From: Candidatus Nomurabacteria bacterium RIFCSPHIGHO2_02_40_30
GTDB lineage: Bacteria; Patescibacteriota; Minisyncoccia; Phycocordibacterales; UBA9973
Direction: 5' to 3'
Length of the DNA stretch: 64,000 nt
Assembly: GCA_001785445.1 (NCBI GenBank)
Contig: MFTV01000010.1
Coordinates: 101,566-165,565 of the forward strand
Below are positions 3,859-62,008 of this stretch, in pieces. The translations under genes and the position numbers were made by a program. How positions within the stretch are numbered: position 1 is the first letter of the stretch; the number at the start of each line of letters is the position of its first letter. The notes below the pieces were generated by a model. It was not told the origin of the DNA. It was given only the letters and a program-made list of their open reading frames with translations, and ran no database searches.

Positions 3859-3877
3859 AATGTTATAATTCCTATAA

Positions 3878-6820: not shown

Positions 6821-6856
6821 TTTCTAAAATAATTTTTATTATGCTAAAATTACCTC

Positions 6857-9319: not shown

Positions 9320-9336
9320 AGAACAATTGTAGCATT

Positions 9337-11676: not shown

Positions 11677-11705
11677 TTGACAAACATCGTAAATTATGCT
11701 ATACT
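11677..11705 (+). promoter_or_regulatory. near-consensus sigma70 promoter for the GC-rich island gene
   Basis: TTGACA (11677-11682), a 17-nt spacer ending in TGc, then TATACT (11700-11705). Confidence 0.6.
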
Positions 11706-11755
11706 CCTTATTGGCTTCAGAAATACAGAACTCACTCACGAAAGGACCTACGAAA

Positions 11756-12190
11756 ATGCGAAGATTCGGTTTGTTCATTGCTACATTCCTGTTTGTCGGT
11801 CTTGGATCAGCGATGGCAGCGACTAAGTGCGAGGCTGCTAACGCTCGTCTTTTGGATGCGCAGATCACAGCGAAAGCTTCTTATAAGGCTGCTGTTGCGA
11901 AACGTGATGCCGCACTAAAAAAGTATGAAGACAACCTCGATCTCGCGCAGAAAGCGGGACGAATTCCTACAGAGCCGATCGAGAAGACCGACTTCAGTGA
12001 ACTCGAAAAAAAGGTTGATGAGGTGTGCGAGAAGGAAGTTGCACAGCTCGTCAATCAATGGGTCATCGTAACTAATCAGCTCGTGGCCGCACTTTGTCGC
12101 AACGACGCTGACAATAGAGCGTGTGCGAATCTCCGAGAAGTGGTCGACAGTATAAAGGCCATCAATTCTAAGGACAAGGCTGGCAACTAG
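11756..12190 (+). CDS. hypothetical secreted helical protein (signal peptide, 4 Cys) in a GC-rich island
   Basis: Start moved to MRRFGLFIATFLFVGLGSAMA, preceded by AAAGGA. About 50% GC, against about one-third for the neighbours. Confidence 0.5.
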   Translation: MRRFGLFIATFLFVGLGSAMAATKCEAANARLLDAQITAKASYKAAVAKRDAALKKYEDNLDLAQKAGRIPTEPIEKTDFSELEKKVDEVCEKEVAQLVNQWVIVTNQLVAALCRNDADNRACANLREVVDSIKAINSKDKAGN

Positions 12191-12301: not shown

Positions 12302-13168
12302 TTATATTAATTTAATCTCACCCATTTCTTCCTTAATTAATTCTTTTATTTCCATTACAGATAGGATGGCGTTGGCGGTCGGAGTTGGGAATTTCATTGC
12401 TCTGATTAAATCATCTCTTCCCATAGGTTCACGAAGCAAGTCCACCACCTTTTTTTCTTCCGGCGATAAATCTAAAAATAATTTTGCTTGCTTTTCTTCA
12501 TCTTTTGGTTTTTCAAAACCCAGAGCTTCCAAAACATCTTCCGCGCAGGTTACGGGAGTTGCGCCTTGGTGCAATAATTTATTCGTGCCTTTGGAGTTGG
12601 GAGAAAATATTGAACCTGGAACCACTAATAAATCACGATTGTATTCTGTGGTGAGCCTTGCAGTAATAAGGGTGCCGGATCTTTCTTCCGCCTCTATTAT
12701 TAACGTTGCTTTTGAAATGCCGGCCATCAACCTGTTTCTCATGGGGAAGCTCCATTGGGTAGCTTTGAAAGTAGGTTCAAATTCTGATATTAAACATCCA
12801 CCATTTCCTACAATTTCTTCCATAAGTCTTACATTTGTTTTAGGGTACATTGCTTCAGCGGATAGCCCGGAACCTGGGAATACTAAAGTTTTTAACCCTA
12901 CCTGCATTGCCTTTTTGTGGGCGATAGTATCTATGCCCATAGCAAAACCGGAAACGACGGCTATAGGATAACCCTTTAATCCCGCAATTATTTTCTCGCA
13001 AGCTTCCCTGCCGTACGAAGTAAATTTACGCGAACCAACAACGCATAAATATATTAAATTCTCGGTAGGTAGCTCACCGATAATCCAGAGGTCGGCTGGA
13101 GGTTGAGGTATCTCCAAGAGTGCTTTTGGAAACTTATTTTTAGCCAACTTTTTGATTTCCACATACAA
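12302..13168 (-). CDS. dprA: DNA processing protein DprA/Smf
   Basis: Rossmann-like DprA core (VVSGFAMGIDTIAHK, EERSGTLITA) with a C-terminal winged-helix-like tail. The track start is a TTG codon. Confidence 0.85.
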   Translation of the reverse strand: MYVEIKKLAKNKFPKALLEIPQPPADLWIIGELPTENLIYLCVVGSRKFTSYGREACEKIIAGLKGYPIAVVSGFAMGIDTIAHKKAMQVGLKTLVFPGSGLSAEAMYPKTNVRLMEEIVGNGGCLISEFEPTFKATQWSFPMRNRLMAGISKATLIIEAEERSGTLITARLTTEYNRDLLVVPGSIFSPNSKGTNKLLHQGATPVTCAEDVLEALGFEKPKDEEKQAKLFLDLSPEEKKVVDLLREPMGRDDLIRAMKFPTPTANAILSVMEIKELIKEEMGEIKLI

Positions 13169-13185
13169 TAGTATATAGTATATAT

Positions 13186-14451
13186 ATGTTAGACATCAAA
13201 TTCATTCGTGAAAACAAAGATATAGTGCAGGCAGGCGCCAAGAAAAAGCATACTGATATAGATATTGAAAAGCTTGTTACGCTTGATGACGAACGCCTGA
13301 AAGAACTAAAAGAAGTCGAAGACTTACGGGCAGAAGTAAATAGAGTCTCTAATGATATATCTCGCAATCAGGACTCGGCGCTCAAAATTCAACTCATAGA
13401 AGAAATGCGTATTGTTAAGGAAGATATTAAAGTCAAAGAAGGAAAATTGAAAGAAATAATAACAGAGTGGCAAGTTCTAATGTTGCAAGTTCCGAATGTA
13501 CCGGATATGAGTGTGCCCGAAGGATCGGGTGAAGATGAAAACAAAGAACTCCGGACATGGGGTGAAAAACCAGTCTTTAGTTTTGAACCCAAAGATCACA
13601 TTGAGATAATGACCAAACTCGATATGGCTGATTTTGAGCGTGGAGTTAAAGCACACGGCTTTAGAGGGTATTTTTTGAAAAACGACGGGGCATTACTGTC
13701 GTGGGCCATATGGAATTATGCGCAGGAATTTTTTCTGAAAAAAAATTTTAGTCCTTTTATTCCTCCGGTTATTTTAAATAAAGAGCATTTTTTCGGTACA
13801 GGACATCTACCAGGTGGAGCAGAAGATATCTTTCAAACCCAAGATGGTCAATATTTGGCCGGTACGGCCGAAGTACCAATGATGGCTTACCACGCAAGTG
13901 AAATACTTTCGGAGAAAGACCTGCCGAAACGTTATCTTGCTTTCTCTCCGTGTTTCAGAAGAGAAGCAGGTGCCCATTCCAAGGATGTAAAAGGTCTTAT
14001 TCGCGTGCATGAGTTTTATAAATTGGAACAGCTCGTTCTATGCAAAGCAAGTCATGAAGAGTCGGTAAAATTCCACGAAGAATTAAATCGTAACACTGAA
14101 GAATTTATAGAATCTCTTGGAATCCCTTATAGACAAGTTGTAATATGCACTGGGGATTTAAAAGGGGCTCATGTTAAATCATACGACACAGAGCTTTGGG
14201 TACCAAAAGAAGGGAAATATCGGGAGATAGCAAGCGCATCTTATTATCATGATTTTCAAACCCGCAGATTTGGCATTCGCTATCGTGACCAAGAAGGAAA
14301 AATACATTACGCGCATTCACTAAACGCTACCGCGATTCCTACCCCACGAATTCTGGTTTCTCTTATAGAAAACTACCAACAGGCAGACGGTTCTATAAAG
14401 ATTCCGGAAGTTTTAAGAAAATACCTAGGAGGAAAAGAATTTATAAAGTAA
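13186..14451 (+). CDS. serS: seryl-tRNA synthetase
   Basis: N-terminal coiled coil and class II motifs (FRREAG, GLIRVHEF, ATAIPTPR). Confidence 0.95.
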   Translation: MLDIKFIRENKDIVQAGAKKKHTDIDIEKLVTLDDERLKELKEVEDLRAEVNRVSNDISRNQDSALKIQLIEEMRIVKEDIKVKEGKLKEIITEWQVLMLQVPNVPDMSVPEGSGEDENKELRTWGEKPVFSFEPKDHIEIMTKLDMADFERGVKAHGFRGYFLKNDGALLSWAIWNYAQEFFLKKNFSPFIPPVILNKEHFFGTGHLPGGAEDIFQTQDGQYLAGTAEVPMMAYHASEILSEKDLPKRYLAFSPCFRREAGAHSKDVKGLIRVHEFYKLEQLVLCKASHEESVKFHEELNRNTEEFIESLGIPYRQVVICTGDLKGAHVKSYDTELWVPKEGKYREIASASYYHDFQTRRFGIRYRDQEGKIHYAHSLNATAIPTPRILVSLIENYQQADGSIKIPEVLRKYLGGKEFIK

Positions 14452-15252: not shown

Positions 15253-16208
15253 TTAACCTAGGGTTCTGGGGAGAAATTAAAAAGCCGATTTTCTGCCTTG
15301 CGCCGATGGCAGACGTCACCGACTGCGCTTTCAGGCAGATAATTGCGAAATATGGTAAACCGGATGTTTTTTGGACAGAATTTGTATCAGCAGATGGATT
15401 GTGTAGTGCTGGCAGAGAAAAACTTTTAGTTGATTTTATCTACAGCGAAAACGAAAGACCAATGGTAGCTCAAATTTTCGGATCTAAACCGGAAAACATA
15501 AAGAAAGCTTCGGAACTTTGTAGAGAGCTTGGTTTTGACGGAGTAGATATAAATATGGGATGCCCTGATAAATCTATCGAGAAGCAGTGCGCCGGCGCAG
15601 CTATGATGAAAAATCCTCAACTTGCTCGGGAAATTATTCGTGCGGCCAAAGAAGGCGCAGGTGATTTGCCAGTGTCTGTGAAAACTCGCATTGGTTACAA
15701 TAAAAATGAAATTGAAACTTGGATAAGGGAGCTGTTGTCGGAAGATATAGCGGCGCTTACGGTGCATTTGCGTACCCGTAAAGAAATGTCTAATGTTCCT
15801 GCGCACTGGGACTTGATGAAAAGAATAGTTCAAATTAGAAATGAAATGAAGAAAAAAACTTTAATACTAGGCAATGGCGATGTCTTAAATTTAGAAGATG
15901 CGAAAAGAAAAGTGGAGGAGACAGGCTGCGACGGAGTGATGCTCGGTAAAGCAATCTTTGGTAACCCGTGGTTGTTTGCTGAAAAAGTTCCATCTATTAA
16001 AGAGAAGCTCGAAGTCATGATAGAACACACCAAGCTTTTTGAAAAAATGCTGAGTGGGCATAAAAACTTCGCCATTATGAAAAAACATTACAAAGCATAT
16101 GTGAATGGTTTTGATGGGGCGAAAGAGCTTCGAGTGAAACTCATGGAAGCTGAGAATGCTCTTCAAGTAGAAAACATAGCTAATGATTTTTTAGGTAAAA
16201 TAGAGTAG
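15249..16208 (+). CDS. dus: tRNA-dihydrouridine synthase
   Basis: LAPMADVTD, DINMGCP and a TIM-barrel Dus pattern. Confidence 0.9.
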   Translation: MINLGFWGEIKKPIFCLAPMADVTDCAFRQIIAKYGKPDVFWTEFVSADGLCSAGREKLLVDFIYSENERPMVAQIFGSKPENIKKASELCRELGFDGVDINMGCPDKSIEKQCAGAAMMKNPQLAREIIRAAKEGAGDLPVSVKTRIGYNKNEIETWIRELLSEDIAALTVHLRTRKEMSNVPAHWDLMKRIVQIRNEMKKKTLILGNGDVLNLEDAKRKVEETGCDGVMLGKAIFGNPWLFAEKVPSIKEKLEVMIEHTKLFEKMLSGHKNFAIMKKHYKAYVNGFDGAKELRVKLMEAENALQVENIANDFLGKIE

Positions 16209-16217
16209 AATAAAAAT

Positions 16218-17255
16218 ATGCATGATTTGGCGTTATATCGTAAATACAGACCGAAAAAGTTTAAGGAGGTTCTGGGGCAGAACCACATCGTAGATGTCTT
16301 AGAGAGTTCTGTGGAGACAAATAAAGTCTCCCATGCATACCTTTTCGTAGGTTCGAGGGGAACAGGGAAAACTTCCGTGGCAAGAATTTTTGCTACAAGT
16401 ATTGGGGTTTCAATAAATGACATGTACGAAATAGATGCCGCCTCGAATAGAGGAATTGAAGATATTAAAGAGTTGCGTGATGGTGCACGAGTATTGCCTT
16501 TTGATTCTAAATATAAAGTTTATATCATTGATGAAGTGCACATGCTCTCGAAGGATGCTTGGGGAGCGCTACTTAAAACTCTAGAAGAGCCACCAAAGCA
16601 TGTAATATTTATTTTAGCTACCACTGAAATGCAAAAAGTGCCGGAGACTATTATTTCTCGCTGTCAGGTTTTTGTTTTCAAAAAAGCCACGGACACTGTC
16701 AATAAAAAGATGCTCATTGATGTTGCCAAAAAAGAAGGGTTTGAACTGGATGCTGGGTCAGCAGAGCTTCTCGCAATCTTGGCGGACGGCTCGTTCCGAG
16801 ATGCTCTTGGTGAACTTCAGAAAGTTGTGAACTTTAGCAAAGGAAAGAAAATAAAAATTGAAGATGTGGAGAAAATAACCGGCGCTCCAAAGACAGTACT
16901 CGTGAATAATTTTATTTCCGCAATCGCTGAAAAAAATCTAGAGAAGGGAATAGGAGTTGTCCAGAAAGCATCGGCAGAGAACCTAGACATGAAGTTATTT
17001 TTGAAACTTATAGTGTCGAAGCTACGTTTAGCTATAATTTTGCGCTATGCGCCAAAATTAAAAAATGAAATGGTAGGGGATTTGAGTGAAGCTGATATTG
17101 AATTCCTGCAAAACGTAGTCAAAACAGATAAAGAAGGCATGCTTCGTTCAGGGGCATTGGCTATTTTACTTGAAGCGTACCAGAATATAGACAATGCATT
17201 CATCGCCGAGCTGCCCCTCGAGCTTGCATTGGTTAAGATACTCGGCAAAGAATAA
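16218..17255 (+). CDS. dnaX: DNA polymerase III gamma/tau subunit, short form
   Basis: YRPKKFKEVLGQ, Walker A GSRGTGKTS, IIDEVHML and SRCQ. Confidence 0.85.
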   Translation: MHDLALYRKYRPKKFKEVLGQNHIVDVLESSVETNKVSHAYLFVGSRGTGKTSVARIFATSIGVSINDMYEIDAASNRGIEDIKELRDGARVLPFDSKYKVYIIDEVHMLSKDAWGALLKTLEEPPKHVIFILATTEMQKVPETIISRCQVFVFKKATDTVNKKMLIDVAKKEGFELDAGSAELLAILADGSFRDALGELQKVVNFSKGKKIKIEDVEKITGAPKTVLVNNFISAIAEKNLEKGIGVVQKASAENLDMKLFLKLIVSKLRLAIILRYAPKLKNEMVGDLSEADIEFLQNVVKTDKEGMLRSGALAILLEAYQNIDNAFIAELPLELALVKILGKE

Positions 17256-17837: not shown

Positions 17838-17952
17838 CAATAAGGAATATCCGTATAGGAAAGGCGCTCTCGAAGCTAAAGGGCGGAATGCGTCGACCTT
17901 GTTGTTGGGCTGGTTGCAGTCATCGTTAAAATAAATCTGATATAATGTCCTT

Positions 17953-18411
17953 ATGAAAGAATTAGCGCCAGATGTAAACTCGCAAGAGCATTGGGAGAAT
18001 ATATTAGAGAAAAAGAGGATGCCGGCAGAGCTTCCATTTGAATCTGTGCGGGCAAAAAGGGTAGGAATCGACCTTGTATCTTTGGACTTGGTTGACTCTG
18101 AAGCCGAAGCATTTGCAAATAAACTAAGAGAGGAAGGACCGAATAACGTCCCAATGGAATTCCCAGAAAGTATGGGCGAAGTGATTTCTGAAATAGAAAG
18201 CCTAAAAGAAGCTTTAGTAACGCAAAATATTCCAGAACAAGAAATACATTTAACTATTCACACATCATGTGTCAACGACCAAGATTGCATAATATTATTC
18301 CATAATAATGGCAATAAATATCACTTTAATACAAAAGATATAAAAGGGTATACGAGAGAAAAAATGGTTGAGAGTCTAGCTTCGCACAATATTGCTTGTG
18401 GTGAAAAATAA
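17953..18411 (+). CDS. hypothetical acidic protein
   Basis: ORF only. TATAAT lies 6 nt before the ATG. Confidence 0.45.
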   Translation: MKELAPDVNSQEHWENILEKKRMPAELPFESVRAKRVGIDLVSLDLVDSEAEAFANKLREEGPNNVPMEFPESMGEVISEIESLKEALVTQNIPEQEIHLTIHTSCVNDQDCIILFHNNGNKYHFNTKDIKGYTREKMVESLASHNIACGEK

Positions 18412-19171: not shown

Positions 19172-19200
19172 TTTTTTGTAGAAAATGCTAGAATAAATTT

Positions 19201-19629
19201 ATGCAAAACAAAATTACAAAAGAAGATATGCGTAGCTTGGCTCCAGCTATTGTGCGAGTGGGTGTATCTGTTGTTTTTATTTGGTTCGGTTATCAGCAGC
19301 TCATTGATGCCAGCTCTTGGACAGTCTTGGTGCCCTCTTGGGTCACGTCGTTTTCTGGCACAAATGCGGTTAGTTTTATTTATTTGAATGGTATATTTGA
19401 AGTTGTTTTTGGTATATGTTTGCTCTTAGGACTATTTACCAAAACTGTGGGTTTCTTACTTGCCCTGCATATGCTCCATATAACATATTTAGTAGGATAC
19501 AATGACGTGGGGGTACGGGATTTTGGTCTATCGCTCTCAACAATAGCGGTATTTCTGCACGGGGCTGACTCTTGGTGTGTTGATAAATATTTAACGAAGG
19601 TAAACCTACCTTCTGCGCGCCATCTCTAG
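19201..19629 (+). CDS. DoxX-family membrane protein
   Basis: Four hydrophobic helices with a DoxX-like pattern (VFIWFGYQQL, LLLGLFTK). Confidence 0.6.
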   Translation: MQNKITKEDMRSLAPAIVRVGVSVVFIWFGYQQLIDASSWTVLVPSWVTSFSGTNAVSFIYLNGIFEVVFGICLLLGLFTKTVGFLLALHMLHITYLVGYNDVGVRDFGLSLSTIAVFLHGADSWCVDKYLTKVNLPSARHL

Positions 19630-20203: not shown

Positions 20204-21058
20204 TTATTTTTTATTTATTATTTTACTAATAGCTTGTGCCAACTTGGACGAATCATGACGAATAAGACTTCTTTTCATTATATCTCCAGATATTGGTATT
20301 ATAGTTTCTTTAGATCTAAGGGGGGCTTCACCTTTAATTAAATTGTCTACTGGTCTTCCTAGATAAAATTCCAGTTTATCCAAATAGGTATTTGTATCTT
20401 CTCCTTTTAAATTTTCTATAGCGATAACTTTCCCTCGACTTTTTAATAAAGATTCTTTAAATCCTTCTACGATTAGATTAGGTACAATGGAACCATAAAA
20501 ATTTCCAGGACAAATTACTATATAATCTGCTTCCTGAATTGCCTTTGCAGCTTTTGGATTTAGTTGCACTTTATTCCTATAAAAAATTTTCCTCACATCT
20601 ACAATTTTCAAATCACTGGTACTGATTTTACTTTCACCCTCTATTTTTTGACCGTTGGTAAGTAGAACACCCAATTGTGCATCATCTAAAGTAACAGGGA
20701 TAATAGTACCTTTTGGTTTTAGAAATTTCGTAGCTATTTCTAAGGCTTCCTCAAAATTTCCTGTTAACTTTTCCAGACCAGCTATAAACCAATTTCCAAT
20801 CATGTGACCATCTGTATTTCTATGTTTTAAAAACTCATACATTTCTGTATTAAGAGTAAGAGCGGAGAAACATTGCCTAATATCTCCCATTGGATGAACT
20901 CCAAATTTCTCTCGTAGAATACCAGTAGAACCACCATCATCTGCCATAGATGCAACTGCGAAAATAGAAATATTTGTAATGTTTTTTAATCCAGATAGTA
21001 GCCTGTAGCTACCTGTACCGCCACCTATAGTAACGATATTTTTAACTTTAGATTGCAT
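20204..21058 (-). CDS. YvcK/CofD-family protein (gluconeogenesis factor / GlmR-like)
   Basis: IVTIGGGTGSYRLLSGLK and DDGGSTG motifs of the UPF0052/CofD family. Confidence 0.75.
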   Translation of the reverse strand: MQSKVKNIVTIGGGTGSYRLLSGLKNITNISIFAVASMADDGGSTGILREKFGVHPMGDIRQCFSALTLNTEMYEFLKHRNTDGHMIGNWFIAGLEKLTGNFEEALEIATKFLKPKGTIIPVTLDDAQLGVLLTNGQKIEGESKISTSDLKIVDVRKIFYRNKVQLNPKAAKAIQEADYIVICPGNFYGSIVPNLIVEGFKESLLKSRGKVIAIENLKGEDTNTYLDKLEFYLGRPVDNLIKGEAPLRSKETIIPISGDIMKRSLIRHDSSKLAQAISKIINKK

Positions 21059-21104
21059 TTGTAGATATTAGCCTAAATTGCTAATTTTTGCTATTGTAAT
21101 TCGT

Positions 21105-22949
21105 ATGTGTGGCATCGTTGGATACATTGGCAAAAAACAGGCCTACCCGGTTCTAATCAAAGGATTGGAACGGCTGGAGTACCGTGGCTATGACTCTGCG
21201 GGAGTAGCACTTTTAGAGAATGGTGCTTTTTCGGTATACAAGAAAAAGGGTAAAGTAGCAGAATTGTCGAAATTTGTAAAAAATAAAAATATCAAGAATT
21301 TTTCCGGTGGAGTTGGCATAGCGCATACTCGCTGGGCAACTCATGGCATTCCATCAGACAGAAACGCTCATCCACACTTATCTAATAATGGGGACATTGT
21401 TATAGTGCACAATGGAATAATCGAAAATTATCTTTCGATAAAAAAAGTTCTATTAAAAAAGAATTATAAATTTAAATCTGATACGGATACCGAAGTTTTA
21501 GCAAACTTAATCGAAGATATAAAAAATAATGCGAAGGTAAGTATTGATGAGGCGGTACGTCTAGCACTTTTACAGGTGACCGGAGCTTACGCGATTTTAG
21601 TATTGTCGAAAGATGAACCGAACACGATGGTAGTGGCAAAAATAGGTTCTCCTGCCGTGGTAGGAATAGGCAAAGGGGAGTTTTTCGTAGCTTCTGACGC
21701 CACGCCAATTGTTGAACATACGAAAAAAGTGGTGTATTTGGAAGATAGGGAAATAGCTATAATAAAAAACGGCAAACTTAGAATAAAAACCATAGATAAT
21801 AAAATAAAAAATCTTTATGTCCAGAAACTTGAAACAAAAATCGAAGAACTGGAAAAGAACGGTTTCCCTCATTTTATGCTCAAGGAGATATTTGAACAGC
21901 CGGAATCACTGCGCAACACAATGCGAGGAAGAATTCTGGTGGATAAAGGTGGCATTAAATTTGGCGGATTGGAGAAATTTGGAAAAGAGCTTCGCTCACT
22001 GAAAAGTCTCACTATCACAGCTATGGGCACCGCACGTTTTACCGGTCTTGTCGGTGAATACGCATTTGAAGAACTAGCAAAAATCCCTACAAAGGTTGAA
22101 TACAGCTCTGAATTTGCTTACCGTGATGCGTCGGTTGACATAAACACGGGGTTTATTGCAATTTCACAATCCGGAGAGACTGCCGATACTTTAAATGCCG
22201 TTAAGGAAGCTAAAAGAAAAAATATGTTGACTTTGGGTGTAGTAAACGTCATCGGTTCAAGTATTGCTAGAGCCGTAGACGCTGGTATTTACAACCATGC
22301 AGGGCCGGAAACAGCTGTAGCAAGTACTAAAGCTTCGACTTCGCAAGTGCTTATTCTCATCATGCTTGCCGTTTATCTAGGGAGAATGCGTGATTTATCA
22401 AAGGCTAAAGCTCAAGAGATCTTAAAAGAAATGCAAAGACTTCCGAATTTAGCAGAAAAAATTCTAAAAAATGCCAATGAAATAAAAAAACTTGCGAAAA
22501 AATACAGCAAAAATAATAATTTCTTTTTCCTTGGTCGCAAATATAATGCCGGAGCTGCCATGGAAGGGGCATTAAAGCTCAAAGAATGTTCTTACATTCA
22601 TGCCGAAGGAATAAATGCCACCGAGCTCAAACACGGACCGCTTTCACTGATTGATAAAAATTTCCCATCACTTGTTATAGCACCGAATGACAGTATGTAT
22701 GAAAAAAGCAAAACTGGAATTCAAGAAATAAAAGCTCGCGGCGGGCGTGTGATAGCCGTCGCCACTGAAGGCAACAGGGAGATTAAAACAATCGCTGATG
22801 ATGTAATTTATATTCCAAAAACTCTTGAGATTCTGACTCCGATTCTGGCTTTTATTCCAATGCAACTCTTTGCCTACTATATAGCGGTTGAACGTGGTAA
22901 TGATGTCGATAAGCCAAGGAATTTGGCAAAGTCTGTAACAGTGGAATAA
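21105..22949 (+). CDS. glmS: glutamine--fructose-6-phosphate aminotransferase
   Basis: Start trimmed to MCGIVGYIG (Ntn catalytic Cys2). Two SIS domains and a C-terminal KPRNLAKSVTVE. Confidence 0.95.
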   Translation: MCGIVGYIGKKQAYPVLIKGLERLEYRGYDSAGVALLENGAFSVYKKKGKVAELSKFVKNKNIKNFSGGVGIAHTRWATHGIPSDRNAHPHLSNNGDIVIVHNGIIENYLSIKKVLLKKNYKFKSDTDTEVLANLIEDIKNNAKVSIDEAVRLALLQVTGAYAILVLSKDEPNTMVVAKIGSPAVVGIGKGEFFVASDATPIVEHTKKVVYLEDREIAIIKNGKLRIKTIDNKIKNLYVQKLETKIEELEKNGFPHFMLKEIFEQPESLRNTMRGRILVDKGGIKFGGLEKFGKELRSLKSLTITAMGTARFTGLVGEYAFEELAKIPTKVEYSSEFAYRDASVDINTGFIAISQSGETADTLNAVKEAKRKNMLTLGVVNVIGSSIARAVDAGIYNHAGPETAVASTKASTSQVLILIMLAVYLGRMRDLSKAKAQEILKEMQRLPNLAEKILKNANEIKKLAKKYSKNNNFFFLGRKYNAGAAMEGALKLKECSYIHAEGINATELKHGPLSLIDKNFPSLVIAPNDSMYEKSKTGIQEIKARGGRVIAVATEGNREIKTIADDVIYIPKTLEILTPILAFIPMQLFAYYIAVERGNDVDKPRNLAKSVTVE

Positions 22950-22959: not shown

Positions 22960-23295
22960 ATGAACATAACCTCAAAAAAAGAGAATAAGGCGTATGCAAT
23001 AAAAATTGTGGCAGAAGAAAACGGTAATATTTTAGGTGGAGCCTATTTATATATTATGTTTAATGATTTACACACCAAGCCGTTTGGGTTTTTAGAGAAT
23101 GTTTTTGTTAAAGAGGAGTATCGTGGAGGAGGCATCGGTTCTAAATTAGTTGAGGCTGTGATAGAAGAAGCAAAAAAGCAAGGTTGCTACAAAATAATTG
23201 GTACAAGTCGTAATACTAACTCTAAAGTTCATGATTTCTATAAAAAACTAAACTTTAAGGATTATGGTAAAGAATACAGAATAGATTTAATTTGA
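22960..23295 (+). CDS. GNAT-family N-acetyltransferase
   Basis: Acetyl-CoA-binding motif YRGGGIGSKLVEAVIEEAKKQG. Confidence 0.7.
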   Translation: MNITSKKENKAYAIKIVAEENGNILGGAYLYIMFNDLHTKPFGFLENVFVKEEYRGGGIGSKLVEAVIEEAKKQGCYKIIGTSRNTNSKVHDFYKKLNFKDYGKEYRIDLI

Positions 23296-23309
23296 TATAA
23301 TGCAAACAT

Positions 23310-24254
23310 ATGGAAAAGATTTTAGTAATTGGCGCATGCGGGCAAATAGGAGTGGAGCTGACTTTGGCTCTGCGAGAAAAATACGGCAATGAAAATGTGA
23401 TAGCCTCTGATATTCGGGAAGAAAGTGAAATTCTTAAGGGTACAGGCCCTTTCGTCGTCCTTGACGCCATGGACCACGAAGCGACTAGAGCCTTGGTAAA
23501 AAAAGAGAGTATAACTACCATTTACTTGCTGGCGGCTCTTCTCTCTGTGACTGGTGAAAAAAATCCTGCTTTATGTTGGGGTTTAAATATGGGAGCCTTG
23601 AGGCAAATTCTTGACTTAGGTATAGAAGAAAAATTAAAAATATTTTGGCCTAGCTCTATTGCTGTTTTTGGAGCAACTACTCCACAGGATAACACTCCCC
23701 AAAAAACAATTATTGAACCAACAACTATGTATGGCATCACTAAATACGCCGGAGAACTTTTATGTCAATACTACAATAAACGCCTTGGGCTTGATGTGAG
23801 GAGTGTGCGCTACCCGGGGCTAATCAGTTGGAAAACCGAGCCGGGAGGAGGAACTACTGACTACGCTGTAGAAATATTTTATGGAGCTCTCAAGGAGGGC
23901 AAGTATACTAGTTTTCTTTCAGAAAATACCTACTTGCCAATGATGTACATGGACGATGCTATTGCTGCCACACTTCAAATAATGGAAGTATCCAAAGAAA
24001 AAATAAAAATAGCGATGGCTTACAACTTGTCGGCTATAAGTTTTTCACCAAAAGAAATTGCCGAAGCTATAAAAAAACAAATTCCCAATTTTGAGATAAG
24101 CTATGCTCCAGATTCTCGCCAAGCTATTGCTGATTCTTGGCCACAAAGCATTGATGACAGCTCTGCGCGCGCAGATTGGGGCTGGAAACATGAATACGAT
24201 TTATCAAAGATGGTAGACACAATGCTAAAGAATTTAAAAGAAAAGTTAAAATAG
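23310..24254 (+). CDS. tdh: L-threonine 3-dehydrogenase, SDR/epimerase type
   Basis: GACGQIG Rossmann motif. GGGTTDYAVEIF and SWPQSIDDSSARADWGWKHEYDL match my memory of the mammalian/Flavobacterium-type TDH. Confidence 0.85.
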   Translation: MEKILVIGACGQIGVELTLALREKYGNENVIASDIREESEILKGTGPFVVLDAMDHEATRALVKKESITTIYLLAALLSVTGEKNPALCWGLNMGALRQILDLGIEEKLKIFWPSSIAVFGATTPQDNTPQKTIIEPTTMYGITKYAGELLCQYYNKRLGLDVRSVRYPGLISWKTEPGGGTTDYAVEIFYGALKEGKYTSFLSENTYLPMMYMDDAIAATLQIMEVSKEKIKIAMAYNLSAISFSPKEIAEAIKKQIPNFEISYAPDSRQAIADSWPQSIDDSSARADWGWKHEYDLSKMVDTMLKNLKEKLK

Positions 24255-35214: not shown

Positions 35215-35281
35215 AATGTATATTATGTATATTAACATAAAATTTGAGTAAGGCAATTATTGTGCTAATATGGTTTATTAT

Positions 35282-36778
35282 ATGAAAAAGAAAATCACTT
35301 CAGCGTTGATTTCAGTTTTCAGCAAAGATGGACTTGAAGATATTGTAAAGCTCCTTTCTAAACACGGAGTAAAGATTATTTCTACAGGTGGTACTGCCGA
35401 ATTTATACGTAAACATAATATATCCGTGACTGAGGTAGAAACTATTGCCAAATTTCCGGCAATTTTTGGTGGCAGAGTTAAAACACTTCAACCGCAAATT
35501 TTTGGTGGCATTTTAAATAGGAGAGACAACAAAGAAGACCAGAAGGAAAAAGCTGAACATAAAATAGAAGACATAGACTTAGTAATTGTAGATTTGTATC
35601 CATTTGAGGAAACACTTGCAAGTGGTGCGAATGAAGAAAACATTATTGAAAAAATTGATATAGGAGGAATATCTCTTATTCGCGCGGCAGCTAAAAACTT
35701 TAATGATGTAGTTGTAATATCATCAAAACATCAATACCAAGAGCTAACTAATATATTGAACTTAGGAAATGAAACAAGTCTGGAAGAACGCAGAAAGTTT
35801 GCCGGTGCTGGGTTTGAAGTAACAAGCAAATATGATGCTGCGATAAGAGGATATTTCCAAGGCACATCACTGCGTTATGGAGAGAATCCACATCAAAAAG
35901 CGGAGTTTGTGGGGAACTTGGAAGAAAGTTTTACCCAACTTCACGGAAAAGAACTTTCTTATAATAATCTCATAGACACAGAAGCTGCAATTTTGACGGT
36001 GACTGATTTCCAAAAGCCTGCTTTCGCTATTATCAAACACATGAATGCTTGTGGCCTTGCTGTCAGGGAAGAAGGGGAATTATTTGAAGCTTATAAGGCC
36101 GCCTATGATGCAGACCCTGTCTCAGCATTTGGTGGCATACTCGCGGCCAACAGAACTATTACTGAAGACATCGCCAAACTTATCAAAGAAGTTAAACTTT
36201 TTATCGAAGTAATAATTGCTCCAGACTTTTCGAAAGAAGCTCTAGCTATATTAATGGAGAAAAAAGATTGCCGAATTTTAAAATGGAATAATCCAAACCT
36301 GCCAACAAAACAAAATCGTACTTGCTTTACCGGAATTTTGTCGCAAGACCGAGATACACACGTGGAAACAGGAGAGGACTTAACAGTAGTGACGAAACGC
36401 GCGCCGGACGAAAGAGAAAGAAAAGATTTATTAATTGCCGCAGTGACTACAAAACATTTAAAATCAAATTCTGTTGCGTTGGTGAAAGATGGCACGCTTC
36501 TTGCTATGGGTTGTGGGCAAACTTCGCGCATTGATGCCTTAAAGCAGGCAATAGATAAAGCCCAAAGAATACAGCAATTTGGATTCTCACTTCAAGGTGC
36601 AGTGCTCTCTTCGGAAGCATTCTTTCCATTTCCTGATTGTGTAGAATTGGCTGCTAAAGTGGGAGTTACTGCCGTAATTCAGCCAGGAGGCTCGAAAAAC
36701 GACCAAGCATCCATAGACATGGCTGACAAATATAATCTGGCAATGGCAACAACTGGGTTTAGACATTTCAAACATTAA
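35282..36778 (+). CDS. purH: bifunctional AICAR transformylase / IMP cyclohydrolase
   Basis: ALISVFSKDGL, GGTAEFI and VKTLQPQIFGGIL. The start could also be the ATG at 35270. Confidence 0.9.
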   Translation: MKKKITSALISVFSKDGLEDIVKLLSKHGVKIISTGGTAEFIRKHNISVTEVETIAKFPAIFGGRVKTLQPQIFGGILNRRDNKEDQKEKAEHKIEDIDLVIVDLYPFEETLASGANEENIIEKIDIGGISLIRAAAKNFNDVVVISSKHQYQELTNILNLGNETSLEERRKFAGAGFEVTSKYDAAIRGYFQGTSLRYGENPHQKAEFVGNLEESFTQLHGKELSYNNLIDTEAAILTVTDFQKPAFAIIKHMNACGLAVREEGELFEAYKAAYDADPVSAFGGILAANRTITEDIAKLIKEVKLFIEVIIAPDFSKEALAILMEKKDCRILKWNNPNLPTKQNRTCFTGILSQDRDTHVETGEDLTVVTKRAPDERERKDLLIAAVTTKHLKSNSVALVKDGTLLAMGCGQTSRIDALKQAIDKAQRIQQFGFSLQGAVLSSEAFFPFPDCVELAAKVGVTAVIQPGGSKNDQASIDMADKYNLAMATTGFRHFKH

Positions 36779-36821
36779 TTTTTTAGCTTGTATCATTTTG
36801 TAAAAATGCTAGAATAATTTT

Positions 36822-37340
36822 ATGACAAAAAACCCGAAGGTAGGCATTATTATGGGCTCAGATACGGATTTAGCAATCTTTGCTGAATCAGGAGGAATAC
36901 TTGAAGAATTCGGAATTCCTTATGAAATCACAGTGGCCTCAGCTCATCGCGCGCCTAATTTAGTCCATAAATATATTACGACCGCTAAAGCTCGCGGAAT
37001 TAAAGTTATCGTAGCTGGCGCAGGCGGCGCAGCGCACTTAGCCGGAGTGTGCGCCTCTCTGACAACACTTCCAGTCATCGGAGTCCCAACTAAAGCGAAA
37101 ACTTTAGACGGGCTTGACTCTTTGCTTTCAACAGCCCAGATGCCTCCAGGAGTGCCAGTAGCCACCGTCGGCATCAATGCCGGAAAAAATGCCGGAATTT
37201 TAGCTGTTCAGATATTGGCAACAAGTGATAAAAATCTGGAAGAGAAATTGGTTGTATATAAAAACAAACTTGAACAAGACAATAAAACAAAAGGAGAAAA
37301 ATTAGGAAAAATCGGCTATAAAAAATATTTAGATAAATAA
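36822..37340 (+). CDS. purE: N5-CAIR mutase-like PurE (looks class I)
   Basis: [15 protein letters not shown] and [10 protein letters not shown]. Confidence 0.9.
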
Positions 37341-37342
37341 AA

Positions 37343-38464: not shown

Positions 38465-38537
38465 TTATGAATCCCGTTAGAAATCAACTAACGGGAAATT
38501 AAAAGAGAAAATTATAAATGTTAAAATTTCTAACGGG

Positions 38538-39483: not shown

Positions 39484-40842
39484 ATGTCACTAAATTCAAT
39501 TTCACCAATAGACGGACGCTATGAAAAACAGACTTCTATTTTGTCTCCTTTTTTTAGCGAGAAAGCATTAATGCAGTATAGAGTAATTGTGGAAGGTGAG
39601 TACTTTATTGCCCTTTCGTTATTAAGAAAAACATCTTTGAGGAAATTTAGCAACACAGAGATAAAAAAAGTCAGAAGTTTATACAGGCTTTCTTCTAAAG
39701 ACTTCGAGCATATAAAAAATATCGAACAAAAAACAAATCATGATGTAAAAGCAGTGGAGTACTTTTTAAAAGAAAAACTGGCCAAAACATCCCTTAAAAA
39801 AAGCGTGGAATGGATTCACTTTGGTTTGACGTCCTATGATATTAACACTGTTGCCCGGGGGATGATGCTCGGTGACGCTTTGGAAAAAGTTATTATTCCA
39901 AAAATCATCTTGTTAACAAAAAACATCAATACTATCTCTAAAAAATACAAAGCTTTGCCCATGCTCTCGCGCACCCATGGCCAGAGCGCTTCGCCCACCA
40001 CCTTCGGCAAAGAAATGAAAGTTTTTGAGCAAAGATTAAAAAAACAAACTGACATACTGGAGTTTGTAAGGATATCAGTAAAGTTTAGCGGCGCTACCGG
40101 CAACTTTAATGCACATCATGTAGCTTACCCGAAAGTTGACTGGATTAAATTCGCCAAAAGTTTTATAAACAGTTTAAATAAAAATAGAAAAATCAAACTG
40201 GAGTTAAATTTGCCGACAACCCAGATAGACCCGCATGACAGGGAAATAGAAATTTTTGATTGTTTGCGCAGAATCAATACTATTCTAATAGATTTTAATC
40301 AGGATATTTGGCATTATATTAGCGACGAATGGCTGGTGCAAAAAGTTATCAAAGGCGAAGTAGGCTCTTCCGCTATGCCGCACAAAGTTAACCCCATCAA
40401 TTTCGAAAACAGTGAAGGTAATTTAGGTTTGGCGAATGCTCTTCTTAATTTCTTTTCTAATAAACTGCCAATTTCTCGTCTGCAAAGAGATTTGTCAGAC
40501 TCTACCGTAGAGCGAAACTTCGGTTCAGCTTTGGCTTACTCTTTAATAGCATATGAAAATTTGTTAAAAGGCCTTTCAAAAATTGATGTTAATAAACATA
40601 AAATGGCTAAAGACTTAGACAATCACCCAGAAGTAATTACCGAGGCTATGCAAACGATACTTCGGCGCGAAGGTGTAGCCATGCCGTATGAAAAATTAAA
40701 AGAATTGACTCGTGGTAAAAACATAACAATGGGTGATATTCATAAATTTATTGATACTTTGAAAGTGAGTATTGAGGTAAAAAAAGAGTTAAAAAAAATT
40801 ACTCCTGCGAACTACATAGGTTTAGCTTCAAAACTGGTATAA
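39484..40842 (+). CDS. purB: adenylosuccinate lyase
   Basis: SPIDGRY and the fumarate-lyase signature GSSAMPHKVNP. Confidence 0.9.
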   Translation: MSLNSISPIDGRYEKQTSILSPFFSEKALMQYRVIVEGEYFIALSLLRKTSLRKFSNTEIKKVRSLYRLSSKDFEHIKNIEQKTNHDVKAVEYFLKEKLAKTSLKKSVEWIHFGLTSYDINTVARGMMLGDALEKVIIPKIILLTKNINTISKKYKALPMLSRTHGQSASPTTFGKEMKVFEQRLKKQTDILEFVRISVKFSGATGNFNAHHVAYPKVDWIKFAKSFINSLNKNRKIKLELNLPTTQIDPHDREIEIFDCLRRINTILIDFNQDIWHYISDEWLVQKVIKGEVGSSAMPHKVNPINFENSEGNLGLANALLNFFSNKLPISRLQRDLSDSTVERNFGSALAYSLIAYENLLKGLSKIDVNKHKMAKDLDNHPEVITEAMQTILRREGVAMPYEKLKELTRGKNITMGDIHKFIDTLKVSIEVKKELKKITPANYIGLASKLV

Positions 40843-40848
40843 TGGTTT

Positions 40849-41685
40849 ATGACACTTAAAAAAGCTCTAATTTTTGTGTTGATAATAAATTCTCTGTTTG
40901 GAGCTTGTAGAGCATATGCCCAAAGTTCCAACGCCGGTTTTGTGCCCGGAAATATCTGGTATTCTCTGGACCCATTTCTCGAAGGAGATAAGATAAAAAT
41001 ATATACCTTGATTTTCAACCCTGACCCTAGAGAATTATCAGGTACTGTGGTATTTTTTGATAACAGTGTCTTCTTGGGTAAAAAAGATTTCACTGCTCCG
41101 GCTAAAGGTGTTAAGGACGTATCGATAGACTGGACGGCCACAGTTGGAACTCACAATATTTTCGGTAAAATTGAAAATGCTAAGTTTCTGGTGGCTAAAA
41201 ACAAGTACGAAGAAGTGTACTTGGCGGAAAACGAAACAAGTAAAAGCTCGCGCACGGTCAGCAAAAAAATAGTTGCAAAAATAATTGATACAGCTGATGC
41301 AAGCACAAAGATATCTGACTCTATTGTAAACAAGGCTGGCAACGCTATTTCTGATTCGGTGGAAAATGTTAAAGAAGCAGTTGTAGCTAAAATACCGCAG
41401 TTTGTAGCGAAGCCTTTAACTTTAACCGGAAATGTAATTGAGGGCTGGCGTTCCAGTGTAGGTACTGCCTCGGAAAATAAAAAAGAAGTGGTTCAAACTG
41501 ATATTGAAAAAATAAAGAAGGGAAGTACAAAAAACGATAGTAAATTTTTAGAACCTTTTAAATATGTGGAGCTTTTCTTTTTTACCGTTTTATCTTTTAT
41601 TTTTAATAGTAAATTTATATTTTACAGTATTCTATTTATTATTTTAGCTTTAATTCTGCGTTATATATGGAATTTAATTTTTTAA
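40849..41685 (+). CDS. hypothetical secreted protein with a C-terminal TM anchor
   Basis: ORF with a signal peptide (…FGACRAYAQ) and a hydrophobic tail. Confidence 0.45.
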   Translation: MTLKKALIFVLIINSLFGACRAYAQSSNAGFVPGNIWYSLDPFLEGDKIKIYTLIFNPDPRELSGTVVFFDNSVFLGKKDFTAPAKGVKDVSIDWTATVGTHNIFGKIENAKFLVAKNKYEEVYLAENETSKSSRTVSKKIVAKIIDTADASTKISDSIVNKAGNAISDSVENVKEAVVAKIPQFVAKPLTLTGNVIEGWRSSVGTASENKKEVVQTDIEKIKKGSTKNDSKFLEPFKYVELFFFTVLSFIFNSKFIFYSILFIILALILRYIWNLIF

Positions 41686-56476: not shown

Positions 56477-56571
56477 TTATATATAGGATAACAAGTATAT
56501 TAGTAGAAGTTAAATTTTTTAACATTAACACTGTTATTGCAACTTTTTGTTAAATCTATTAGAATATCAGC

Positions 56572-57237
56572 ATGATAAAAATACAGTCAGCTGTGCGAGA
56601 TATAGTGCTAGAAGAAATAGAGGCTTATTTTGCCCTAACCAACGGCTACATGAATATGAGCAGTTATGCGTACCGGATAAAGTCAAAGGTAGAGTTACTC
56701 ACAAAAAAGCACACAACTATAGCGAGTTTGGTGGTTTCCCTCTCCCGCCTTGCGAAAGAACTGAAAAAAGAGAGACCGCTGATACATAAAGTAGCAATAA
56801 AAAATATTACTACCAAACTTCCACTCACGGAGATAGCTTATGAAAATAGTACCAAATTCATTGAGAAGTTGGAATCATTGCATAAAAATATTTCTGTATC
56901 TGCAGAAGACTTTTTTACTACAACTATTGGCACCACAGAAATCGATATTATTTGCTCGTCTAATCTGGAGGCTAAAATTTTGAAACATTTCACTATGAAA
57001 CCGAAGTGGGTAAACCATAACTTTGCCGCCATCGGAGTTTCTTACGGTCCGGAAGTTTTCGGCACTCCAAATGTTTTTTTCTCCCTTCTCTCGGTAACTG
57101 CTCGCGCCCGCATCAACATAGAAGAGCTGGTCTCCACGCCCACCGAGCTCATCTTCATCGTGGCCGAAGCTGACTTCGGCAGAACCGTGGCTCTGTTTTC
57201 AGAGTTGCACAGAGAAGTAAACAATGATAACCTATAA
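56572..57237 (+). CDS. free-standing ACT-like protein, paralog 2
   Basis: Gap-free alignment to 50140-50799 (about 55-60% identity by eye). First gene of the rpsU-ybeY-ftsA unit. Confidence 0.6.
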   Translation: MIKIQSAVRDIVLEEIEAYFALTNGYMNMSSYAYRIKSKVELLTKKHTTIASLVVSLSRLAKELKKERPLIHKVAIKNITTKLPLTEIAYENSTKFIEKLESLHKNISVSAEDFFTTTIGTTEIDIICSSNLEAKILKHFTMKPKWVNHNFAAIGVSYGPEVFGTPNVFFSLLSVTARARINIEELVSTPTELIFIVAEADFGRTVALFSELHREVNNDNL

Positions 57238-60369: not shown

Positions 60370-60392
60370 TTTACATAGTGTATACTAAATAT

Positions 60393-61364
60393 ATGACTTA
60401 CGATTTAATTATTATCGGGGGTGGACCGGCCGGCGCGGCGGCGGCAGTTTACGCTGCTCGTAAAAGACTACAGACGCTCTTTATTACCAGCGAGTGGGGC
60501 GGGCAAAGTGTAGTCTCCGAGCAAATTTACAACTGGATTGGCACCACTTCCCTCTCGGGAAATGAATTAGCAGAAAATTTTAAAAAGCATGTATTGGCAA
60601 ATGCCATAGGTACTGAAAACCTGAAAGAGGCTGAAGATTTGGGCTCTACGCTTTTAGTAAAAGAAGGTGAAAAAGTAATTTCTCTCACAAGGACAGTCCT
60701 TGAAAATTCCTTTGAAGTTACAACAGAAAATGGCGAGAAATTTTTAGCTAAGACAATTCTAATAACTAGCGGCAGCGGTAGAAGAAAACTTGAGGCAAAG
60801 AATGCCGACAGACTAGAACATAAAGGACTCACTTACTGCGCCTCTTGCGACGGGCCTCTTTTTACCGGTCAGGATGTCGCGGTAGTGGGCGGCGGGAACG
60901 CTGGGTTTGAAACTGCTGCCCAGCTTCTGGCCTATTGTAAATCCGTAACCCTTCTGCACCGTAGTGAGTCTTTTGATAAAGCTGATGAAATTACCGTTGA
61001 TAAAGTTTTGAAAAACCCAAAAATGAAAGCGGTAAAAAATGTGGAAATTTTGGAAATACAAGGCGATAAATTTGTCGAAGGAATAGTATATAAAGACAGA
61101 GCTACCAGCCAAGAAACAGAATTGAAGGTCTCCGGTATTTTCGTGGAAATCGGGCAAATTCCAAATACTAACTTTGTGAAAGATTTGGTTCCGCTTGACG
61201 AAATCGGACGTATAAAAATAAATCCGTTAAATCAAAAAACTTTAGTCCCCGGCATCTGGGCTGCCGGCGACTGCACTGATGTGCTCTATCATCAAAACAA
61301 CATCGCCGCCGGTGATGCCGTCCGCGCCCTCGAAGATATTTATTTGGCAATTCATACTAAATAG
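60393..61364 (+). CDS. trxB: thioredoxin-disulfide reductase
   Basis: Start trimmed to MTYDLIIIGGGPAG. Redox motif CASCDG and a second Rossmann motif VVGGGNAG. Confidence 0.9.
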   Translation: MTYDLIIIGGGPAGAAAAVYAARKRLQTLFITSEWGGQSVVSEQIYNWIGTTSLSGNELAENFKKHVLANAIGTENLKEAEDLGSTLLVKEGEKVISLTRTVLENSFEVTTENGEKFLAKTILITSGSGRRKLEAKNADRLEHKGLTYCASCDGPLFTGQDVAVVGGGNAGFETAAQLLAYCKSVTLLHRSESFDKADEITVDKVLKNPKMKAVKNVEILEIQGDKFVEGIVYKDRATSQETELKVSGIFVEIGQIPNTNFVKDLVPLDEIGRIKINPLNQKTLVPGIWAAGDCTDVLYHQNNIAAGDAVRALEDIYLAIHTK

Positions 61365-61420: not shown

Positions 61421-61448
61421 TTGACAGGTTTAGATAAAAGCATAAACT
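61421..61448 (+). promoter_or_regulatory. promoter for the riboswitch-led operon
   Basis: TTGACA-N16-TAAACT. Confidence 0.55.
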
Positions 61449-61469
61449 TAGTATGTTCCTTTAATAATT

Positions 61470-61648
61470 TAAAAGAAGTGATTGGGGAAACTGGTTAGAT
61501 TCCAGTACAGTGCCGCTACGGTAAGCCCACGACTTTGTGTCGGGGACAAGTCCGATTACCAATCATTTTTGTTTTTCCCGAGCAGGATATCCTCTTTCGT
61601 TTTTTTACGAAAAAGACTGTAAATTCTGCCCGCAGCAGGATTTTTTTT
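61470..61648 (+). promoter_or_regulatory. cobalamin riboswitch (aptamer plus SD-sequestering / terminator-like hairpin)
   Basis: P1 stem TGATTGG/CCAATCA. Core GGGAAACTGGTTAGATTCCAGTACAGTGCCGCTACGGTAAG. B12-box-like AAGTCCGATTACC. Hairpin AATTCTG/CAGGATT, then T8 directly before the ATG. Confidence 0.7.
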
Positions 61649-62008
61649 ATGTCTAAAAATAATAAAAAATTATATACCGGCCTTGTTATTATTTTACTCT
61701 TTTTTGCTTTTGTTCTAGTTCCCTCTTTTAAAAAAGAAAGTCAGATATCGGATTCAATAATATCCCCTGTAAAATTTGCTCCTAATACTCTTCTGTACGA
61801 TGCTCTGGTGCAAGAAGAAAAAGAAGGTAGAATAGACTTTTCTGGAAAAATGTACCCTAATCTCGGATTTTTTGTAACAGACATTGGAACACTGCATTCT
61901 GGTAACGGTAAAAACCTTATTTATTATATTAACGGCAAAGAAGCGGCTGTCGGCGTTTCTTCCTACAAGCTCAAAGATGGCGACGTCATTGAGTGGAAAT
62001 TGGAATAA
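61649..62008 (+). CDS. membrane-anchored DUF4430 (transcobalamin-like C-terminal domain) protein
   Basis: Start trimmed to MSKNNKKLYTGLVIILLFF. DUF4430-like end LIYYINGKEAAVGVSSYKLKDGDVIEWKL. Confidence 0.75.
   Translation: MSKNNKKLYTGLVIILLFFAFVLVPSFKKESQISDSIISPVKFAPNTLLYDALVQEEKEGRIDFSGKMYPNLGFFVTDIGTLHSGNGKNLIYYINGKEAAVGVSSYKLKDGDVIEWKLE

Follow-up and report, generated by a model that had tools for sequence, protein, structure and literature searches.

A stretch of 64,000 nucleotides from Candidatus Nomurabacteria bacterium RIFCSPHIGHO2_02_40_30 (contig MFTV01000010.1, positions 101,566 to 165,565; hereafter the window) raises the question of how the expression of its genes is started. 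A first-pass annotation of this DNA noticed that a -10-like hexamer, TAnnnT, lies exactly six nucleotides before the ATG of many genes, several times with TGc ahead of it, and read this arrangement as a sign of widespread expression without leaders or without Shine-Dalgarno (SD) motifs. The organism belongs to the Patescibacteria or candidate phyla radiation (CPR), which constitutes a large share of bacterial diversity and displays reduced ribosomes. The initiation of translation in these bacteria was previously left open, and about half of the Parcubacteria lack an anti-SD sequence (PMC9297842).

In this work, we compared the start regions of the window with those of related genomes. According to the sequence evidence, the best explanation, and in our judgement a highly probable one, is that leaderless mRNAs are widely produced from extended -10 promoters placed at the ATG, in a lineage devoid of SD usage. 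A promoter at the ATG together with the lack of SD usage would provide a concrete and testable answer on translation start for at least a quarter of Parcubacteria genes.

Sequences, gene calling and controls

The window has a GC content of 38-39% and very densely packed genes, comprising housekeeping genes, a near-complete purine pathway and a diaminopimelate (DAP)/lysine pathway. A search with the SerS protein of the window retrieved matches from Patescibacteria/CPR genomes only; the top matches (84-88% amino-acid identity) correspond to metagenome-assembled genomes labelled Nomurabacteria, Paceibacterota or 'Patescibacteria group', and one of them (L001, 86%) is labelled 'uncultured Candidatus Saccharibacteria'. 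With this search, a family-wide sample of 80 related Parcubacteria/Paceibacterota loci (1.23 Mb) was gathered, among them L075 from the complete genome OY969557.1 (876 kb). The SerS of the window is also represented in 155 blocks of an assembly collection, such as ENA ERZ27254864. Genes were called by a rule blind to the motif, namely open reading frames (ORFs) of at least 100 amino acids starting at the first ATG, with greedy removal of overlaps, which yielded 56 genes in the window and 1018 in the relatives. As a negative control organism, 50 kb of Escherichia coli (40 genes) were processed through the same pipeline. Spacers between the TAnnnT hexamer and the start codon are denoted by their length, N6 being six nucleotides. 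A position weight matrix (PWM) covering positions -17 to -7 was also used, trained on the relatives only for the scan of the window, and genes with a divergent upstream neighbour (n=369) were taken as those forced to head a transcription unit.

A hexamer at one fixed distance from the start codon

The TAnnnT-N6-ATG arrangement was found in 15 of the 56 window genes, compared with 3.6% at other upstream offsets (binomial P=8e-10), a background that matches the chance rate of 0.32 cubed estimated in the first-pass annotation. Among the relatives it precedes 205 of the 1018 genes (20.1%) over a background of 3.1% (P=3e-100). The positional profile of TAnnnT, which that annotation had proposed as a test of its reading, thus displays a sharp peak at -12 to -7 in both gene sets. 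The peak is one nucleotide wide, with frequencies in the relatives of 3.8% at N5, 7.9% at N7 and about 3% elsewhere; N8 (6.2-6.4%) and N9 (6.1-6.3%) are also raised.

The signal depends on the identity of the hexamer and on the start codon. In the relatives, TA.AAT is enriched 27-fold and TATAAT 43-fold at N6, while hexamers with another base than T at the first or last position ([^T]AnnnT and TAnnn[^T]) show no enrichment there, and the arrangement is present in every GC class from 30% to 58% GC (12-26% of genes). The full form TGnTAnAAT-N6-ATG occurs 6 times in the window against 0.23 expected from dinucleotide shuffles. Non-start ATGs (n=41,272) carry the hexamer at N6 in 1.5% of cases, with no peak, and none of the 40 E. 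coli genes carries it. The frequency is 23.8% when the upstream neighbour is divergent and hence contributes no stop codon.

Promoter architecture of the element

Alignment of 220 N6 cases revealed the preferences of the pattern-free interior of the hexamer (T 0.48, A 0.75 at -9, A 0.66 at -8) and, upstream of it, a TRTGn motif (T-17 0.60, R-16 0.68, T-15 0.65, G-14 0.58). At -35 to -33, with a 17-bp spacing, T (0.53), T (0.55) and G (0.26) are raised, and TTG is found in 16-19% of cases versus 8%, which may correspond to a weak -35 element. G is nearly excluded at -1 (0.05), which results in a pyrimidine-purine start context. The extended -10 suggested earlier by TGc before some hexamers was borne out, as TG stands at -15/-14 in 41-52% of N6 hexamers versus 9% of TAnnnT at control offsets, with similar rates for divergent upstream neighbours, for distant ones and for same-strand neighbours no more than 15 nt away. 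Judged by its sequence, the element is a promoter of the sigma-70 extended -10 class, with consensus TRTGnTAtAAT and a weak -35 TTG, and its recognition by RNA polymerase is predicted. In sigma-70 promoters the hexamer occupies positions -12 to -7 and transcription proceeds from +1, and an N6 spacer therefore puts the predicted +1 on the A of the ATG.

Scanned with the PWM, starting from the motif and not from the genes, the window yielded 35 strong sites, 13 of which are followed at 4-10 nt by the ATG of an ORF of at least 60 amino acids. One strong site (659) lies 44-49 nt upstream of tRNA-Trp (5' end at 713). In front of tRNA-Leu, at a distance of 11 nt, a generic consensus scan for two-hexamer promoters placed TTGATT-17-TAGAAT. 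Positions like these suit a signal for transcription better than one for ribosomes. Overall, the generic scan was only mildly enriched (75 sites vs 51±8), being poorly discriminating because -35 elements are weak here.

Frequency, start codons and conservation

Counting PWM sites at spacers 4-9, the excess over controls (1-4%) amounts to 24-28% of all genes. It reaches 35% in genes with a divergent neighbour, 26% in those following a same-strand gene at more than 15 nt, and 18% where this gap is 15 nt or less, so that transcription-unit heads carry the element about twice as often as genes that closely follow another. A strong PWM site is located within 200 nt in 185 of the 369 divergent-neighbour genes, and in 101 of these 185 the spacer is 5-9, which assigns over half of the promoters that can be recognised to the leaderless type. 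Furthermore, where a gene has no site at its start, its in-frame ATGs of codons 2-31 have one in 7.6% of cases vs 0.57%, a 13-fold enrichment, and hence start mis-assignment conceals some further cases. The N6 cases of the window all start with ATG; candidate upstream GTG starts carry the element in 7 of 142 cases versus 0.6% in the control, and candidate TTG starts with the element are not enriched (1/227). Such use of ATG, some GTG and no TTG fits leaderless translation.

With starts anchored by protein alignment, the element is kept at N6 in 27 of 32 parB orthologues, 18 of 20 dnaX orthologues and 25 of 78 serS orthologues, and at N5-9 in 16 of 18 rel and 52 of 78 serS orthologues; in topA, N6 is found in just 2 of 45. 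Across orthologues, the element and its distance are maintained gene by gene as the sequence of the six-nucleotide spacer drifts. The N-termini of rplI, lysA, trxB, purE, parB, dnaX, rel and yvcK are supported by profile hidden Markov model coordinates, and the SerS start is anchored by 78 aligned N-termini.

Shine-Dalgarno usage and the remaining genes

The first-pass annotation had described SD motifs as essentially absent, and our counts showed no enrichment of them. SD 4-mers (GGAG, GAGG, AGGA) in the -20 to -4 region were found in 9.1% of genes overall versus 10.7% in a control segment further upstream, in 3 versus 4 of the 56 window genes, and in 10.9% versus 11.2% of the genes without the N6 element. 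Longer SD words rise marginally at -13 to -9, by at most 0.6% per position. The same scan recovered a clear enrichment in E. coli (17/40 vs 7/40). Where the promoter element is missing, the DNA upstream of the gene is A-rich and the surroundings of the start are weakly structured, with a mean minimum free energy of -6.2 kcal/mol versus -10.1 kcal/mol for internal windows. Overlaps of 4 nt or 1 nt (ATGA or TAATG types) were counted in 51 of the 647 same-strand pairs and would be consistent with termination-reinitiation.

These results agree with the anti-SD loss reported in the same phylum-level group, where just 48% of the 16S genes of Parcubacteria yielded the motif and the authors considered the formation of SD helices improbable (Tsurumaki et al., 2022; PMC9297842). 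That study dealt with rRNA and ribosomal proteins and leaderless mRNAs are unmentioned in it, whereas the present analysis concerns mRNA start regions.

A model of leaderless initiation and the points against it

The positional profile, the promoter flanks, the SD scan, the contrast with E. coli and the conservation among orthologues support the leaderless and SD-less reading of the first-pass annotation. From the motif, its phase and its promoter-like surroundings, we infer where transcription begins and how the ribosome engages. RNA polymerase would initiate seven nucleotides after the last T of the hexamer, that is, on the A of the ATG, and the resulting mRNAs would begin with 5'-AUG and have no 5' untranslated region (UTR), so that ribosomes would start on the 5'-terminal AUG without SD pairing. 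In this genome and its relatives, this route would apply to some 20-30% of genes and about 35% of transcription-unit heads, not to all genes, and would extend to genes with a promoter lying inside the 3' end of the gene before them. The other genes would be leadered or translationally coupled, likewise without SD, and with A-rich, weakly structured starts.

Several points weigh against this model. The transcription start is predicted solely from promoter geometry, and most of the 1018 starts in the relatives rest on the crude first-ATG rule. A search for a 16S gene whose anti-SD could be inspected, by a regular expression for the conserved 16S 3' region and by blastn with E. coli 16S/23S, gave no match in the window or the 80 loci. 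The element also precedes 13% of overlapping genes and 17.5% of genes lying 0-15 nt downstream of a same-strand neighbour, and by the logic of GeneMarkS-2 an element in such closely packed genes would be read as a ribosome-binding site (RBS) and not as a promoter; these closely packed sites carry TG at the same rate as the others. Two window genes, moreover, are clearly leadered. The best full promoter of the first 20 kb, TTGACA-17-TGcTATACT (11677-11705, plus strand; feature 11677..11758), has its predicted transcription start site (TSS) about 44 nt before the ATG at 11756, the likely start of a secreted protein with signal peptide MRRFGLFIATFLFVGLGSAMA, and AGGA (11741-11744) is placed 11 nt upstream of this ATG. 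The ATG at 11696 picked by gene callers falls inside that promoter, and the start of ORF 11696 is a probable mis-annotation. The second is a DUF4430 gene (61437..61651, plus strand; ATG 61649) which is preceded by a cobalamin riboswitch (61437-61581; Rfam 36.6 bits), lacks a start-proximal -10 and has AGGA 8 nt before its ATG.

Alternative explanations

The explanation that survives best beside strictly leaderless mRNAs accepts the promoters as real and proposes that transcripts start a few nucleotides before the ATG, with leaders of 1-5 nt. We regard it as improbable. RNA polymerase varies by about 1-2 nt in its choice of TSS, and spacers of 7 to 10 nt are enriched along with N6. Window examples include the NAD-dependent epimerase/dehydrogenase-like gene (TGaTATAAT, hexamer 23296-23301, N8, ATG 23310; 23293..23312, plus strand), for which a variant spacing, leaderless or with a 1-2 nt leader, is predicted; a holin-family gene (TGtTATAAT, hexamer 4508-4503, N9, ATG 4493; 4491..4511, minus strand); purC (N10, ATG 38538); and one of two possible starts of purH. 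The latter gene is ambiguous (35258..35284, plus strand), as it displays either TATTGT (35258-35263) with N6 and ATG 35270, or TGTGcTAATAT (hexamer 35266-35271) with N10 and ATG 35282, which would give a short leader. Conversely, the dominant class is exactly N6, which puts the canonical +1 on the A, and a +1 purine with a -1 pyrimidine is a favoured start context. Since leaders of 1-3 nt behave like leaderless mRNAs, this proposal constitutes a refinement and not another mechanism.

It is also quite unlikely, in our estimate, that TAnAAT serves leadered mRNAs as a non-SD signal for translation, recognised by the ribosome or by protein S1 and not by RNA polymerase, in the manner of the Bacteroidetes 'group B' genomes. 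The occurrence of the element before operon-internal genes, with the frequencies given above for overlapping and closely following genes, would be expected from such a signal, and so would the A-rich upstream regions of the non-N6 genes and the weakly structured start regions. Nevertheless, the flanks are specific to promoters and without function in an RBS (TRTG at -17 to -14, TTG at -35 to -33 with 17-bp spacing, pyrimidine at -1); TG accompanies the operon-internal class as well (41%); the peak is a single nucleotide wide, exactly at the -10-to-TSS distance; and promoter-like sites precede tRNA-Trp (PWM) and tRNA-Leu (consensus scan). The dprA/serS pair bears on the same matter. These genes are divergent and 23 nt apart, with serS (TATAGT 13174-13179, N6, ATG 13186; 13174..13188) on the plus strand and dprA (TATACT 13175-13170, N7, GTG 13162; 13160..13175) on the minus strand, an independent gene call giving the same dprA start (286 amino acids). 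As their -10 hexamers overlap within these 23 nt shared by two genes, there is no room for leaders.

An artefact of AT-rich intergenic composition, of in-frame upstream stops (TAA/TAG at -12) or of start choice has a practically negligible probability: upstream regions are AT-rich and TAA or TAG in frame with the ATG opens 36% of N6 hexamers, but the in-frame spacers 0, 3, 9 and 12 show no comparable excess, so that upstream stop codons are no explanation, homology-anchored starts carry the same element, the peak persists in divergent-neighbour genes, and the shuffles, offset profile, flat rate at non-start ATGs and negative result in E. coli rule out all three sources.

Probable leaderless initiation in the wider context

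Leaderless initiation from extended -10 promoters, the preferred reading, has counterparts in other bacteria. A TA-like or -10 signal about 10 nt before starts is an accepted signature of bacterial leaderless genes (PMC3160421, PMC6028130). Zheng et al. (2011; PMC3160421) reported 'TA-led' genes at more than 20% of the gene complement in Actinobacteria and Deinococcus-Thermus, and the group C genomes of GeneMarkS-2 have a -10 box 6-8 nt from the start (PMC6028130). The present genomes resemble both in the sharply localised -10 box near the start (N6 in 27% of window genes and 20% in relatives), in the sizeable share involved (20-40% of genes or operons there; 24-28% of genes here, 35% with divergent neighbours), in the AUG or GUG start, and in that leaderless status is deduced from promoter-start geometry. 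They differ in that the remaining genes of group C use clear SD sites and here no SD enrichment is seen, in belonging to a small-genome CPR/Parcubacteria clade of 30-58% GC, and in the frequency of the element before tightly packed same-strand genes.

Extended -10 (TGn/TRTGn) promoters of sigma-70/sigma-A type are known from Gram-positive bacteria and Mollicutes, where a 5' UTR with an SD motif usually follows. The element described here is similar in its TRTGnTAtAAT sequence, seemingly weak or dispensable -35, predicted purine start about 7 nt downstream and pyrimidine at -1, and differs in that the promoter abuts the ATG. With Bacteroidetes group B it shares the genome-wide lack of SD usage and the A-rich, weakly structured starts of the non-leaderless genes; however, the mRNAs of group B carry leaders and the motif before their starts is no promoter, whereas here promoter architecture is combined with leaderless spacing. 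Searches of the full-text literature, whose coverage was incomplete so that an earlier description is possible, gave only incidental matches for leaderless or SD usage in CPR, Patescibacteria, Saccharibacteria or Parcubacteria, and likewise for transcription start sites of Nanosynbacter lyticus. We seem therefore to be dealing with a known expression mode in a lineage where it is apparently undescribed, combined with the genome-wide absence of SD.

A further-reaching proposal, which we hold tentatively and would sooner doubt than adopt, is that leaderless initiation is the principal, selected expression route of the clade, having replaced SD after loss of the 16S anti-SD, with promoters inside the 3' ends of preceding genes, so that many genes within apparent operons would be transcribed singly as 5'-AUG mRNAs. 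If true, these bacteria would initiate in an essentially archaeal or ancestral style on a reduced ribosome. On the practical side, gene callers expecting an RBS misplace starts, as seen in ORF 11696, in the TTG start of trxB and in a MurA-like ORF extending over a tRNA; promoter boxes within coding 3' ends constrain protein C-termini; and TRTGnTAtAAT-N6-ATG designs are advised for expression cassettes in Patescibacteria genetics.

Sites in the window

All hexamer and ATG coordinates listed in the first-pass annotation were reproduced, for parB, rel, serS, dnaX, the gene at 17953, the DoxX-family gene, the yvcK-like gene, purE, rplI, lysA, the genes at 50140 and 56572, and trxB, as were the N5 spacings of 40849 and of another possible ATG of guaB (35214). 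Its gene names also stood for parB, rel, serS, dnaX, yvcK-like, purE, DoxX, guaB, rplI, lysA and trxB; the label 'ACT' given to 50140 and 56572 found no Pfam or NCBIfam support.

On the plus strand, the N6 sites with TG comprise purE (TGcTAGAAT, hexamer 36810-36815, ATG 36822; 36807..36824), whose profile positions 1-153 align to residues 7-159; the DoxX-family gene (TGcTAGAAT, hexamer 19189-19194, ATG 19201; 19186..19203), named after its Pfam DoxX match; parB (TGcTAAAAT, hexamer 6845-6850, ATG 6857; 6842..6859); ORF 17953, which belongs to no family (TGaTATAAT, hexamer 17941-17946, ATG 17953; 17938..17955); rplI (bL9; TGcTACAAT, hexamer 45155-45160, ATG 45167; 45152..45169), in which L9 profile positions 1-134 correspond to residues 1-134 and whose promoter lies inside the 3' end of the upstream S41 peptidase gene; and ORF 50140 (219 amino acids; TGaTATTAT, hexamer 50128-50133, ATG 50140; 50125..50142). 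On the same strand and with N6, the hexamer alone was recorded for dnaX (TAGAAT 16206-16211, ATG 16218; 16206..16220), where the hexamer opens with the stop codon of dus, the gene upstream, for ORF 56572 (221 amino acids; TAGAAT 56560-56565, ATG 56572; 56560..56574), and for trxB (TATACT 60381-60386, ATG 60393; 60381..60395), which starts at this ATG and not at the upstream TTG 60264, since the thioredoxin reductase profile begins at residue 3. The minus-strand N6 sites are those of rel, encoding a 491-amino-acid RelA/SpoT protein (TGcTACAAT, hexamer 9331-9326, ATG 9319; 9317..9334), the yvcK-like gene (TAATAT 21070-21065, ATG 21058; 21056..21070) and lysA (TGaTATATT, hexamer 50056-50051, ATG 50044; 50042..50059). 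Other spacings, all on the plus strand, are found at ORF 40849 (TGgTATAAT, hexamer 40838-40843, N5, ATG 40849; 40835..40851), glmS (TGcTATTGT, hexamer 21092-21097, N7, ATG 21105; 21089..21107) and the 90-amino-acid ORF 3878 (TGtTATAAT, hexamer 3864-3869, N8, ATG 3878; 3861..3880).

The string shared by the purE and DoxX upstream regions in the first-pass annotation was recovered as AAAATGCTAGAATAA plus TTTTGTA, one indel apart. Considered as a possible separate regulatory site, it turned out to be mostly the near-consensus promoter: five of the six TGnTAnAAT-N6-ATG sites of the window have C at -13 (TGCTAnAAT). In the relatives, C is not preferred over A or T at this position, and G is rarer. 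The window contains three copies of a 13-mer, AATGCTAGAATAA, one each in the DoxX promoter (19186-19198), the purE promoter (36807-36819) and purN (about 30661-30675), against zero in the 1.2 Mb of related genomes; the 13-mer and the C at -13 may represent a genome-specific promoter flavour or a shared regulatory site.

ORFs 50140 and 56572 both begin with MIKI, and their upstream regions (50100-50140 and 56532-56572) have ACTTTTTGT(A/T)AAATCT in common. Each is divergent to an end of the lysine cluster (lysA and dapB, respectively). By their sequences they are possible paralogues, and they may be duplicated regulators of that cluster.

Additional observations

The tRNA-Leu gene (minus strand, 6700-6781), with its promoter TTGATT-17-TAGAAT at 6820-6792, went undetected when Rfam was run on the whole window; a local run gave it 52 bits, and ARAGORN calls it too. 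Because this tRNA and its own promoter are located there, the EPSP-synthase/MurA-like ORF 5369-6820 cannot start at its listed position. The segment at 61.5-64 kb, around the riboswitch and the DUF4430 gene, is GC-richer than the rest of the window and might be a recent acquisition.

The interval from rpmA (minus strand, ATG 45879) to ORF 45947 holds a perfect 32-nt palindrome (45898-45929; TTACATAATACATTACGTAATGTATTATGTAA). It begins approximately at the predicted TSS of a strong TGTGtTAAAAT promoter (45885-45895), and resembles an operator or the 5' hairpin of a leadered mRNA.

Across 25355-40842 and 48863-56476, the purine de novo pathway is near-complete, including the FGAM synthase subunits, purF, purN, purD, purA, guaB, purH, purE, an AIR-synthase-like gene, purC and purB. 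The DAP/lysine pathway is represented in these regions by lysA, dapF, aspartate kinase, asd, an aminotransferase, dapA and dapB. The biosynthesis of nucleotides and amino acids is, to our knowledge, usually said to be missing from CPR bacteria. Finally, a class II aminoacyl-tRNA synthetase of the Asp/Lys/Asn type (46453-48348) displays a C-terminal fusion to a DUF2000 domain.

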